Positions 10,421-62,663 of a stretch of 64,000 nucleotides of DNA are shown here, piece after piece. Location: positions 6,696,001 through 6,760,000 of the forward strand of contig OZ024747.1 of NCBI GenBank assembly GCA_964016885.1, written 5' to 3'. The DNA comes from Eledone cirrhosa. Its lineage: Eukaryota. Below the pieces are notes generated by a model, which was given only the letters and a program-made list of their open reading frames with translations, was not told the origin of the DNA and did not search any database. The translations under genes were made by a program, and so were the position numbers. The stretch's first letter is position 1. Every line of letters begins with the position of its first letter.

Positions 10421-10546
10421 TAAGTAATTCCGGGTTGAATCGGAGGTAACCACAGTAAGTAAGGTACTCAATACATAGCAGAGTATAAAAGTTTTTCACG
10501 AATGAAACAGTTCTAGTCCTGTAGAAGCTGTTCTATATCAAAACTT
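10421..10546. mobile_element. fold-back Penelope pLTR-like remnant with partial hammerhead 3' half
   Basis: 10421-10495 is nearly identical to 62543-62615. The right part reads GAAAC-agttcta-GTC-ctgtagaagctgttctatatcaaaac, the inverted sense of the same family. Flanked by (TA)n/(GA)n and (TA)n. Confidence 0.55.
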
Positions 10547-11289
10547 ATATATATATATATATATATATATATATACATACATATACATACATACATATAC
10601 ATACATACATACATACATACATACATACATACATACATACATACATACATACATACATACATATATATATATATATGCATATATATATATATGTATATAT
10701 ATATATATGTATATTTGGGCATCCACTGATGAGTTTATGAGAGCCCGCTTGTGTATAAAACTATGGATTATATACAAGTTTCTACATAACATGGAAATTA
10801 TTTATCCCAAATTGTAGAAATGTTATAACGAAACGATCGTCTGGATGGAAAGAGATATTTATTTAATTATGTCTCATATAAAATAATACAACCAGCTATC
10901 CACGAAATACTGATTAGTTAGCACCCCAAACACTGAATTGGGAAAATACTTAGGTATATCCTAATGTTTGAGTGAGATGGAGTTGGTCAGAGTATCGCTT
11001 AAGGCTTTCTCTGTTAATGTATTAAATATATATATATATCTATATATATATATATATATATATATAGATATATAGATATATATATAGATATATAGATATA
11101 TATATATATATATATATATATAGATAGATATATATATATATATATATTATCAGCGGACAACAAAGGCCCTAAAGCAATGAAACGTGCAGAAGAAAATATC
11201 TAAAATACACACCACACACTCACTCACAGATATATATATATGTGTGTGTGTGTGTGTGTGTCGTTTGTTTTGTTATTTCTGTTTACTTT

Positions 11290-12680
11290 TAACATACATA
11301 CATGCATATATATATATATATATATATATGTATGTATATATACATATTTTTATATATATATATATATATATATATGTATATATACATATTTTTATATATA
11401 TATATATATATATATATATATATATATATATATATATATATATATATATACATATATATATATACATATATATATATATATATATATATATATATACATA
11501 TACATATATATATATACATATATATATATATATATATATATATATACATATATATATATACATATATATATATACATATATATATATATATATATACATA
11601 TATATATATACATATATATATATATACATATATATATATATATATACATATATATATATATACATATATATATATATATATACATATATATATATATACA
11701 TATATATATATATATACATATATATATATATATACATATATATATATATATACATATATATATATATATACATATATATATATATACATATATATATATA
11801 CATATATATATATACATACATATATATATACATACATATATATATATATACATATATATATATATATATATATATATATATATACATATATATACATATA
11901 TATATATATACATATATATACATATATATATATATATACATATATATACATATATATATATATATACATACATATATATGTGTATACATATATATACATA
12001 CATATATATATGTGTATACATATATATACATACATATACATATATATATATTATATATATATACATATATATACATACATATATATATATATACATATAT
12101 ATATATATACACACATATACATACATATATATATACATACATATACATACATATATATATACATACATATACATACATATATACATACATATATATATAT
12201 ATACATATACATACATATATACATACATATATATATATATACATATATATATATATACATATATATATATATACATATACATACATATATATATACATAC
12301 ATACATATATATATACATACATACATACATACATATATACATACATACATACATATATACATACATATATATATATATATATATATATATATATATATAT
12401 ATATATATATATACATACATATATATATATATATATATATATATATATATATACATACATATATATATATATATATATATATATATATATATACATACAT
12501 ATATATATATATATATATATATATATATATATATATATATATACATACATATGTATATATATACATATATATATATATATATATATATATATATATATAT
12601 ATATATATATATATATATATATATACATACATATGTATATATATACATATATATATATATATATATATATACATATATAT
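11290..12680. repeat. ~1.4-kb (TA)n/(TACA)n microsatellite
   Basis: Directly visible. Confidence 0.97.
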
Positions 12681-13490
12681 ACTATAGAGTAAAGCATGTC
12701 CAGAGAATTATTTGATAATATATATACATAATCTCTACTCCCAATCAGCATAATTAACCACACAAAAAATCAATTAGACCAGGCTATAAGAATAAAAGGC
12801 ACCTATGAAGAAACATTAAATAAATACGCCACAGCAGCGTCTTTGCGTCCAACCGCTATAGAATATTTACCCAACATTCCAACAGCACGTGGAAATTAAT
12901 TAATTAAATATACGGTCAACCATACATAATTAAGTAAAATTAAAGTTAGAAATGCTTATATACATACCAGGATTAAATCACTAAATCCAGACCCATGGGT
13001 TTCGCTCACATTTTGAGATATCTTATTAAGTATAAATCTCGAGTTTAGAGCTCTTCAGGGGACAAACTCGCTAGGCCAGATTATTTTCCGAAGTGGCCCC
13101 CGCCAAACACGAATTCTTTTACCTAATTATGTATGGTCGACCGTATATTTAATTAATTAATTTCCACGTGCTGTTTAAATGTTGGGTAAATATTCTATAG
13201 CGGTTGGACGCAAAGACGCTGCTGTGGCGTATTTATTTACTGTTTCTTCATAGGTGCCTTTTATTCTTATAGCCTGGTCTAATTGATTTTTTGTGTGGTT
13301 AATTATGGTGATTGGGAGTAGAGATGATGTATATATATTATCAAATAATTTTCTGGACATGCTTTACTCTATAGTATTTTGCTCTGATTATTTAATTTAT
13401 TAATTCTTCATTGAGCCACATCGTGAATAGTTGCCAAAACACATATATACTTGTGACTTTGTTTAATTGGTGTATCTGTAAATATTTATA
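12679..13490. mobile_element. fold-back element (261-bp inverted arms), probable Penelope-like pLTR derivative
   Basis: Arms 12679-12939 and 13117-13377 are reverse complements with about 8 mismatches. The right arm extends ~110 nt further. (TA)n on both sides; hammerhead motif in the spacer. Confidence 0.8.
12985..13063 (-). ncRNA. type I hammerhead ribozyme (minimal, Penelope-type), near intact
   Basis: Minus strand: gtccc-CTGAAGA-gctc[~40-nt loop]gagc-GAAA-c-ccatgg-GTC-tggat. Stem II gctc/gagc, palindromic stem III acccatgggt, GUC cleavage triplet, stem I with one mismatch next to the core. Confidence 0.7.
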
Positions 13491-13532
13491 TATATATATA
13501 TATATATATATATATATATATATATATATATA

Positions 13533-13727
13533 TAACGAAGGAAATGTGGTAAGGAACCAGGTGGACCATAACGCACCAAAGTACTCTATACTTAGGGTAG
13601 TAGAGTGGGTAATAGGAACAAGTAAGACCCCGACAGCTGAGCTCAAGCCGTTTCGACGGCTAATTCTGGACTGAATTAGCCGTCGAAACGGCTTGAGCTC
13701 AGCCGTCGGGGTCTTACTTGTTCCTAT
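13533..13727. mobile_element. fold-back element centred on hammerhead stem II (copy 1)
   Basis: 55-bp arms 13612-13666 / 13673-13727 with 1 mismatch. Each arm carries GAAAC-ggcttgagctcagc(c/t)-GTC-gggg. The left arm extends to 13533; (TA)n on both sides. Confidence 0.8.
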
Positions 13728-14048
13728 ATATATATATATATATATATATATATTAGGAGAGTAGGTGGGAAAGAAAGGTAAAGAGATAGGTGTATAGAAA
13801 TCGTTGTGTAGAGATATCTACAGAGTTTAATACATTTGTTTACCTGAAGGCAGAAAGTACACAAGTGCGGGTGTAATCGATTGACACAATTGTATATTGA
13901 GAGATGTGGACGACATTGTGGACAGCTGAGATGTTTCAGCAGCCACCCTCCCCCGGCACACAACTCCGCCATCACTAGTAAAACAGTAAAGCCTCTCAAC
14001 TATCTACCACTATATATATATATATATATACTGTGTGTATATATATAT

Positions 14049-14240
14049 ATAGGAAAATGTTTAACCCCGACAGCAGAGCTCAAGCCGTTTCGACGGCTAT
14101 TTCCAGAAATAGCCGTTGAAACGGCTTGAGCTCTGCCGTCGGGGTTAAACATTTTCCTATTACCCACTCTACTACCCTAAGTATTGAGTACTCTGATGCG
14201 TTATGGTCCATCTGGTTCCTTACCACACCCCCTTCGTTAT
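14049..14240. mobile_element. fold-back element centred on hammerhead stem II (copy 2, opposite orientation, diverged variant)
   Basis: Arms 14049-14103 / 14106-14160 with GAAAC-ggcttgagctctgcc-GTC-gggg. The long arm to 14240 is homologous to the reverse complement of 13533-13611. (TA)n on both sides. Confidence 0.8.
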
Positions 14241-60783: not shown

Positions 60784-60927
60784 CAGTCATGGGCAAACTG
60801 TGGCCCACAAGCCTCATTCAGCTCGTTTGGCTTTCTGAATGGTACGCCTAATTTCAAAATTGGTTTGAATTTTTTTTAGTAGTGTGGCCTGCCTTAAGAT
60901 GAGCTTCATCCTACTTGCCCATGTCTG
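60784..60927. mobile_element. hAT MITE (same family as 28066)
   Basis: TIR cagtcatgggcaa / ttgcccatgtctg; 8-bp TSD ctccaggt / ctctaggt. Confidence 0.85.
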
Positions 60928-60968
60928 CTCTAGGTCATTATTTATTGTACTAGAAATATCAGTTAAAC

Positions 60969-61134
60969 CAGGCATGTCAAACATGCAGCCCACAGCCTTT
61001 TACAAGCACACCTGCAGCCCGCACGAAGGTTTTTACAGCGCAAGCATGTTTTATCTTCATAATATAAAATTTTAAAAAATAGTTGTAATGTGCGCAATTA
61101 GTTGTCGTGTGTGGCCCTCAGTTTGACATACCTC
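60969..61134. mobile_element. hAT MITE (second family)
   Basis: TIR caggcatgtcaaac / gtttgacatacctc; 8-bp TSD agttaaac / agataaac. Confidence 0.8.
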
Positions 61135-61534
61135 AGATAAACCATATCCTTACCATCTTAGACAAAAACAAAAAGGACATTTTGACAATGTAGTCTTACT
61201 CTCACTAAGTTTGAAAATAAGGTTGGAACATGATCATTAGGTCTGCTGAAATCATGGCTGACCAAAGCCTACAATAGCAACAACAACATTGAATGAACAA
61301 GTTAGACACTATAGTGTCACTTGAATTACTAAAATATGTTGGATAATGCAATCCAGTGCATTACTGGTACTTTATTTTATCGACCTCGTAAAGATGAAAG
61401 GCAAAGCTAACCTTGGCAGGACAATAATAATAATAGTAATAAAAAATTTATGATATTAATTATAGCAATGACATAAAAACATCATCCCATTTAAACAGAA
61501 GGTGAGTAAATTGGCAGAAAGAAAAGTTGATTAT

Positions 61535-61695
61535 ATTGACCCCAGTACTTGACTGGTATTTTATTTTATCAACCTCAGAAGGATGAAAGGCAAAGTTGAC
61601 CTTGGTGGGATCCGAAACTAAAATGTTGAAGTTCAGAATGAAATATTGTGATGGATTTCATCCAATACTCTAACAACTCTGCCAACCTACCACTT
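61535..61695 (-). mobile_element. tRNA SINE (family 1 variant); partial copy also at 61350-61420
   Basis: gaccccagtacttgactggtattttattttatcaacc...ggatgaaaggcaaagttgacc. Confidence 0.75.
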
Positions 61696-62542
61696 CTGAT
61701 ATTATAATAATAATAATGATAATAATGATAATAATAATAATAATAATAATGATAATGTTAACGATAATGATGATAATAATATTCTCAGACATCGGCCCAC
61801 CACACAAGGCCACATATCTATGACAAGGGATCAGGGGTGAAGTGGATTAAATCAGCCACAGCAGTTTAAATTTAATCAAGCCCCTGTTAGTATAAAAGAT
61901 GCAGTCCAACTCAGACATCAGTGGGGGCAGGGAGGGAAAGAAAAAAAAACATAGCAAATATATTATGACAATGGATTAATGTCGAAATATGATAGTGATG
62001 GATAATGGATAGATTTAGGGAGTTTCCTTGAAAAAAGTGAGTTGGATTTCCAAGAGAGTACAATCAATTCTGAAAGTAGAAACAAAACAAAACAAAACAA
62101 AAAAAAAAGAAGAAAAAACCCATATACCAAAAATAAAAATGTAAAAAAATAAAATAAAATAAAGGTTAACAAAATAAAAATTTTGTAGAATAAAGCAGGG
62201 ATTCTGAAAATAGGGATTTTAGCAAAAGAAGAGGAATGTTAGTCAGGGGAAAATCATCATAGTGTATTGGTGTGTATTGTTTAGTTGGTACACCAGTTTA
62301 AGCACTCAATGCTAATAGTTGGGTTCAGCTACCAATGTGGAATTCTACATTCGGTATTTCATCATCATCGTTTAACATCCATCTTCCATACTAACATCGG
62401 TAGGACTATATATATATATATATATATATATATATATATATCGAATGAAATACCTATATACCCAACTATAGTATACATTGTGTATATGTATATCAAATGA
62501 AATACAAATATGCCCATTGTTCATTGTATATAAATATATATA

Positions 62543-62663
62543 TAAGTTATTTCGGGTTGAATCGGAGGTAACCACAGTAAGTAAGGTACTCAATACATAG
62601 CAGAGTATAAATGTTTTAATATAGAAGAGCTTCTTTTAATATTGAAGCTCTTCTATATTAAAA
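62543..62663. mobile_element. asymmetric fold-back element, same family as 10421
   Basis: Perfect 20-bp arms 62614-62633 / 62644-62663; the long arm extends to 62543; TA tracts on both sides. Confidence 0.75.

Follow-up and report, generated by a model that had tools for sequence, protein, structure and literature searches.

Insertions of Penelope-like retrotransposons have been described in several papers. PMC3846280 reported, in 2013, inverted pseudo-long terminal repeats (pLTRs), one of which may bear a tail at its 3' end, and palindromes at the head-to-head junctions, self-priming being proposed. An adjacent inverted 5'-truncated copy and a tail at one end are also described in PMC8557442, together with (TA)n targeting and hammerheads in Hydra, a clade marked by the reverse transcriptase (RT) motifs RWK and DKT and by a C-terminal endonuclease (EN) lacking CCHH. 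Truncated elements with paired hammerheads on opposite strands, 100-700 base pairs (bp) apart, with a helix II of 7-8 bp and a palindromic helix III, are reported in PMC4209133. For a Poseidon element it is established (PMC11167929) that cutting and extension affect both strands of AT-rich DNA, that copying starts at two internal RNA sites delimiting the tail, and that the RNA serving as template is uncleaved. The two internal start sites and the origin of the inverted forms are named as open questions (PMC8557442; PMC11167929). The present analysis concerns short fold-back elements lying between (TA)n tracts in a stretch of 64,000 nucleotides (nt) of Eledone cirrhosa DNA (assembly GCA_964016885.1, contig OZ024747.1, positions 6,696,001 to 6,760,000), hereafter the window, to whose first letter all positions refer.

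The elements belong to family A (A1 and A2), B, family C (C1, C2 and C3) and D, an extra solo element being named P. It is probable that A, B and C arose from TA-targeting Penelope-like retrotransposons, as 5'-truncated insertions made by two complementary DNAs (cDNAs). In each of them, two copies of a terminal repeat are likely placed head to head with a tail on one of them only, and the source clade is probably Hydra-type. The new element of the analysis is a hairpin in this tail, which may set where copying starts. A previous sequence-only reading had derived all four families from TA-targeted Penelope retrotransposition; this is supported for B and C by their hammerhead sequence and for A by the common tail hairpin, the membership of D being unproven. 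The same reading had seen in them a stereotyped class; such a class is not new, its insertion layout being already present in PMC3846280, PMC8557442 and PMC4209133. Its further proposal, that the elements seed long dsRNA hairpins genome-wide, is a conjecture, none of the public runs listed being recorded as RNA.

Fold-back architecture between TA tracts

The window is repetitive and of animal type, 28,804 of the 64,000 bases being left unmasked after the masking of tandem repeats and large satellites, and copies within it were found by masked self-BLAST. The fold-back score of each element was compared with 100 shuffles of that element. The evidence from outside the window consists of papers and of the public sequencing runs X15, X1, X4 and X5, aligned to positions 12935-13676 (742 nt), a stretch chosen as holding one copy each of the arms of B and C1; read depth in these runs does not equal copy number. 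In the reads of restriction-site-associated DNA (RAD), cut at AATT, which we take to be the restriction site of the library, fold-back and solo copies of C are indistinguishable. The 7141 read ends found at 13665, like those at 13281-13284, fall on AATT and appear to be such restriction cuts rather than ends of molecules.

Inverted arms scoring above all 100 shuffles were found in five of the six named elements (A2, B, C1, C2 and D), the arms being 96-100% alike (Table 1). Among the 18 non-repeat segments of 40-1000 nt located between TA tracts, these five fold-backs reach scores of 40-482, none of the remaining 13 exceeding 25. The sixth element, A1, which had been counted with the others, has a score of 15, below the highest value of its shuffles (22), and its short arm can be made out solely through A2, with which it has common ends and a tail alike at 72 of 75 positions. 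One arm extends past the end of the short arm by about 40 nt in D, 69 nt in A2, 77 nt in C1 and C2, and about 109 nt in B. A (TA)n tract adjoins all six elements on at least one side; the former statement that it does so on both sides needs amending for A1, whose left flank is not bare (TA)n but (TA)n(GA)n with a G run.

The short arm terminates in a TA or TAT common to the arm and to the adjoining tract, which had been considered a microhomology. In the reads, (TA)n adjoins the outer end of the C short arm (13612) in all four runs, with 3826 reads in X15 and 99, 10 and 3 contigs in X1, X4 and X5, respectively, which marks this end as a terminus of the family instead of a microhomology arisen by chance. 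For B, one X5 contig (bearing the label of another organism) stops in (TA)n at the short-arm end. These data and the common ends of A1 and A2 and of C1, C2 and C3 delineate two fixed 3' ends, with the tail on one end only, and the TA end is better read as a second reverse-transcription start.

The same features bear on the idea that the elements are miniatures of TA-inserting DNA transposons (miniature inverted-repeat transposable elements, MITEs) or fold-back artefacts of assembly or library preparation. TA flanks, inverted repeats and small size would agree with it, as would the lack of a Penelope marker in D, and no single read or contig record covers the whole 742-nt stretch. However, in all five fold-backs the inverted repeats are not at both termini, one end being 40-110 nt longer, and the hammerhead and the tail hairpin (see below) tie A-C to retroelements; moreover, the differences of 2-4% between the arms in B, C and D are not those expected of a fresh chimera, and other samples and raw reads contain the same ends and head-to-head joints. 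Both possibilities appear, on the whole, very improbable.

Palindromes of another kind, with no hammerhead, are represented by short inverted repeats of unique DNA around (TA)n at 2316-2395 and 51328-51393, both with the form ACGAA-(TA)n-TTCGT. A large nested palindrome around (TA)n, partly deleted, is located at 47140-47840, and TA-broken short repeat units are found also at 46857-46985. Three related short segments separated by TA (62441-62534, 62674-62725 and 62775-62804) flank A2 and may constitute a tandem unit interrupted by it.

Table 1. Coordinates of the elements and related features in the window (strand given where assigned).
Feature	Position	Strand	Description
A1 (decayed, family A)	10421-10546	-	Tail hairpin 10484-10466; fold-back no longer significant
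P	10715-11025	+	Solo element between TA tracts, outside the earlier list; complete type I hammerhead 10720-10847
B	12679-13486		Short minus copy 13116 to 12679 (ribozyme inside), head to head with tailed plus copy 13117-13486; arms 12682-12939 / 13117-13374 (250/258 alike)
B hammerhead (complete, type I)	12985-13062	-	Core 13058, 48-nt stem II region, GAAA 13003, palindromic stem III
B tail hairpin	13381-13416	+	3 nt past short-arm end
C1	13533-13727		Arms 13535-13666 (tailed, sense minus, hairpin 13606-13583) and 13673-13727 (short) around a 6-nt loop; fold-back 13612-13666 / 13673-13727 (54/55 alike)
C2	14049-14239		Arms 14049-14103 (short) and 14106-14238 (tailed, sense plus, hairpin 14166-14189) around a 2-nt loop; fold-back 14049-14103 / 14106-14160 (53/55 alike)
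GIY-YIG endonuclease end (broken)	50209-50570	+	By eye; stops, one frameshift
C3	50986-51029	-	Lone tail-less family C arm between TA tracts; outer end as in C1 and C2
D	51074-51318		Arms 51074-51167 / 51186-51279 (91/94 alike), 18-nt centre, about 40-nt extension
A2 (family A)	62543-62663	-	Tail 62545-62613 (69 nt), hairpin 62606-62588; arms 62614-62633 / 62644-62663 (20/20 alike)

The tail hairpin and the hammerheads

A bulged hairpin with compensatory pairs is present in five of the six elements, i.e., A1, A2, B, C1 and C2. Read outward, it begins with purine-CTC, followed by an inner stem of at least 3-4 pairs that encloses a variable loop, by a bulge of two bases (T-T or T-A) and by GAG-pyrimidine. 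It starts a few nucleotides past the end of the short arm (7 nt in A2, about 4 nt in A1 as judged by eye, 5 nt in C1 and C2; for B see Table 1), and its end is separated from the TA tract by 43-70 nt. In A and C the outer pair is A-T, in B it is G-C; the inner stems differ and still pair, and an alignment of the five hairpins by sequence is inconsistent with their structure. Scanning both strands of the window with the hairpin pattern gave five matches (four with the strict pattern), all of them in the tails of A-C and all facing outward; shuffles gave a mean of 0.23 and a maximum of 3, with 0 of 200 reaching five, a test that is indicative since the pattern was drawn from the same elements, the loop limit being fitted to B and the bulge widened later. 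The common hairpin implies that A, B and C are not unrelated families, as the four had been thought to be; D has no hairpin.

The reads allow the state of these structures in the families to be assessed. The majority letter restores the TT bulge of the hairpin in C at 13587 (10834 of 13276 reads), stem III of C at 13635 (10720 of 13062 reads), and the first stem I pair of the B ribozyme at 12989 (39 of 60 reads), which argues that the structures represent the family state.

The hairpin was recognised by eye in three of the six Hydra-clade consensus sequences of File S7 (PMC8557442), i.e., Hydra-2_Amil, Hydra-2_Ajap (near the 3' end) and Hydra-1_Ajap (at the very start), with other inner stems; Hydra-1_Crog contains a possible variant, and none was seen by eye in Hydra-1_Amil and Hydra-1_Obim. 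One Naiad consensus was also seen by eye to have it, in its 3' part, and, therefore, the clade is not fixed by the hairpin. No description of it came to light in the literature searches or in the passages of the cited papers considered; one may exist in Repbase entries, in the supplementary figures of PMC11167929 or in the Craig supplement, most of which lies outside this scope.

Hammerheads were sought with a relaxed scan of nine regions on both strands, allowing one core mismatch, the core being numbered according to the hammerhead scheme. Two full motifs were found, in B and in P; family C carries the 3' half only (GAAA-stem III-GTC in C1, C2 and C3, with a palindromic stem III loop), and Rfam gave no hammerhead among the 150 of 169 matches listed, its hairpins there being look-alikes. 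Type I hammerhead sequence is thus present in two of the four named families rather than three, as had been claimed, and truncation can remove the ribozyme. In C1 and C2, each arm holds the 3' half facing outward, preceded by a hairpin of 8-12 bp in the position of stem II. The inversion points, formerly placed at or beside hammerhead sequence in three families, are not generally at the ribozyme: in C the turn coincides with the loop predicted for stem II, in B it falls about 55 nt upstream of the complete ribozyme, and A and D have no ribozyme. In C, a 7-nt direct repeat links 13678-13684, before GAAA, to 13701-13707, ending at the cleavage site, so that stems II and III could exchange partners. 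The hammerhead of P has a 6-bp stem I and a 97-nt stem II region; P shows no fold-back, leaves the tail-hairpin pattern unmatched, and is likely the single terminal repeat of a fifth Penelope-like family. An open frame of 62-68 residues antisense to the B ribozyme (0 of 9 candidates, weak Pfam only) was taken as chance.

The decayed Penelope GIY-YIG domain that had been reported at 50200-50545 is indeed visible by eye, with no true database match (0 of 16 candidates scored and no Pfam family). It appears by eye to resemble the endonuclease end of the Hydra clade; it is located about 330 nt from the nearest TA tract, with no link shown to the fold-back elements. The label "Neptune" was dropped after comparison with Hydra sequences, and a match to a GAF chemoreceptor, the sole one among 1.84 billion, was taken as chance.

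Origin of the inverted copies

The features of a Penelope insertion that can be observed in the window include, besides the two fixed 3' ends, an inverted head-to-head truncated copy in five of the six elements and the outward orientation of ribozyme and hairpin in A, B and C. In B, the junction 13116/13117 falls on a 6-nt palindrome. Contigs of X4 and X1 cross 12939/13117 without a break between the ribozyme centre and the arm, and the read depth drops at 13110-13134, which indicates that 13116/13117 is the locus-specific junction and that the ribozyme centre belongs to the short copy; the 12939/13117 joint was rejected as a shared fold-back, being the parent's own continuity. In C, the arms are identical at 53 of 54 and 52 of 54 positions within a copy, against 46-47 of 54-56 between copies, so that both arms derive from one template lineage. 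The 15 of 20 read joints listed include eight opposite-strand joints, with one side at 13666-13676 (near the end of the reference) and the other at 13590-13634; three of these eight break in the tail (13590, 13601 and 13606), the other arm reaching 13669-13676, and one snap-back from the tail cannot produce them.

These data allow two cDNAs to be weighed against an inversion by self-priming (snap-back) on one template, either cDNA or antisense RNA, with the same Penelope origin. The snap-back, which had been put forward, along with template switching, for all the elements, is fitted by C1 and C2 alone, which turn symmetrically at a hairpin with a loop of 2-6 nt; the palindrome at the B junction also favours it, and self-priming was argued from such junctions by Arkhipova et al. 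(2013; PMC3846280). On the other hand, the centre of B is oriented with the short arm and would require a further inversion, the tail-internal joints of C would require later deletions, and a cDNA begun at the tail-less site cannot supply the tail. An antisense template would be compatible with the orientation of B, with the C joints and with the tail. On balance, the snap-back seems unlikely, and the orientation of B and the three read joints fit better with two separately primed cDNAs.

A different possibility makes C (perhaps also A and D) a non-autonomous palindrome, the whole of which would be copied as a hairpin RNA; it would be a retrozyme-like parasite with a life cycle of its own. In favour of this, C is very abundant, with three copies in 64 kb and an X15 depth of 10-14 thousand reads versus fewer than 900 for B (depth, not copy number), and it is deeper than B in all four runs; furthermore, its centre region is fixed in most reads and it has no coding remnant. 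However, the subfamily differences of C are mirrored in both arms and the junctions vary between copies, which makes whole-unit copying less likely; neither a complete ribozyme nor tandem repeats, as in retrozymes, are present, and a perfect hairpin would bury the ribozyme. We consider this possibility improbable.

The insertion by two cDNAs might have occurred as follows. By analogy with the biochemistry of another clade, a GIY-YIG enzyme would nick both strands of a (TA)n tract, and reverse transcription would have two alternative fixed starts within the RNA, the first immediately 5' of the hairpin, giving the tail-less arm, and the second 43-70 nt 3' of it, giving the tailed arm. Both cDNAs would stall early, anneal via a short palindrome (in C, the predicted stem II) and then be filled in, with the tail hairpin possibly acting as the docking site of the Penelope protein. 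Such a scheme accounts for the asymmetry of the arms, the orientation of B and the tail-internal joints. The copies in the window are likely dead stubs, and C may represent a short family that is non-autonomous and moved in trans. A bolder proposal, which we advance tentatively and with some doubt, is that the bulged hairpin, conserved across otherwise unalignable Hydra-type (and some Naiad) elements of several animal phyla with compensatory pairs, docks the Penelope protein and sets both RT starts, and that C is a minimal non-coding parasite, highly amplified and made of the hairpin and half a hammerhead, whose stem II joins the two cDNAs into a palindrome.

Several observations weigh against an origin from two Penelope cDNAs, in addition to the indicative nature of the hairpin shuffle test. 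No hammerhead core was found in A1 and A2 by the relaxed scan of both strands with one mismatch allowed, and the window scans revealed neither core nor tail hairpin in D. The 5' half of the C ribozyme was unseen in all three window copies and in the loose ends (agreement 0.34-0.59). No parent joining any arm to a reverse transcriptase emerged from metagenome, genome and viral pattern scans or from candidate searches, and five arm motifs are absent from the Craig supplement. The tails of A-C measure 69-109 nt, in contrast with the published 30-40 nt. A snap-back followed by a flip of its centre could explain B, and an unstable palindrome that suffered deletions afterwards could explain the tail-internal joints of C, of which one of the three is backed by reads with a single start; fold-back and solo copies of C are not separated by the reads. 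Lastly, the two-start biochemistry comes from a Poseidon element and not from the Hydra clade (PMC11167929).

The hairpin, as a cross-family structural signal 3-7 nt from the tail-less end, could offer a route to a direct in vitro test of start-site choice and a marker for classifying short non-coding MITE-like repeats. A family as abundant as C would provide many natural junctions with which the two-cDNA and snap-back models could be separated. Pattern scans for C gave three metagenome, eight genome and no viral loci (an earlier metagenome pattern gave none); the 11 loci were dropped, none of them extending beyond 19-30 nt.

As for the remaining repeats of the window, large satellites occupy 36722-41723, 2824-10009, 19574-23731 and 51769-53434 and comprise a 21-nt unit in about 230 copies, two opposite-strand arrays based on 5 nt, and a 93-nt unit. 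An abundant dispersed repeat, like a short interspersed element (SINE) in its spread, is represented by at least 10 fragments (301-537, 867-1016, 15660-15714, 27513-27609, 28736-28944, 46455-46783, 49672-49899, 55314-55434, 57927-57964 and 61349-61611). A second dispersed family is located at 16856-16990, 18793-18932 and 48441-48558, a weak tRNA match at 1655-1712 being part of it, and an exact 77-nt direct repeat (16132-16208 and 16411-16487) has a spacing of 279 nt.

Comparison with known systems

Non-LTR (long terminal repeat) retrozymes (PMC7229834; bioRxiv 10.64898/2026.07.22.740005) share with the window elements a small size, a non-coding sequence and type I hammerheads, and they are considered derivatives of Penelope-like elements. 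They are organized in head-to-tail tandem units, each with a complete ribozyme, whereas the window elements are single and head to head, C has half a ribozyme, and no head-to-tail tandem with complete hammerheads was found among them.

The Anolis Poseidon element PAc in vitro (PMC11167929) resembles the mechanism proposed here in that both AT-rich strands are cut and extended and two RT starts downstream of the hammerhead bound the tail. It differs in belonging to another clade, in not being microsatellite-specific and in starting in an AC-rich stem loop inside the open reading frame, and the inverted products are unstudied there.

The Hydra clade (PMC8557442) shares with the window (TA)n insertion in almost all families and a canonical hammerhead near the 3' end, and one of its families has an inverted 5'-truncated copy (File S1). 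It differs in that no arm matches the six novel Hydra consensus sequences and that no RT was seen in the window elements.

The closest likeness is to the inverted pLTR insertions of EN-containing (EN+) Penelope-like elements (PMC3846280; PMC8557442, legend of Fig. 2), which also consist of two 5'-truncated head-to-head copies with a one-sided tail and a junction palindrome and have in the repeat a hammerhead, such as is complete in B and represented by its 3' half in C. Compared with these, the window elements lack coding sequence between the repeats, the tails of A-C are longer, as reported above, and (TA)n hides the target duplications. The elements of the window probably work like the published Penelope insertions, and their architecture itself is known.

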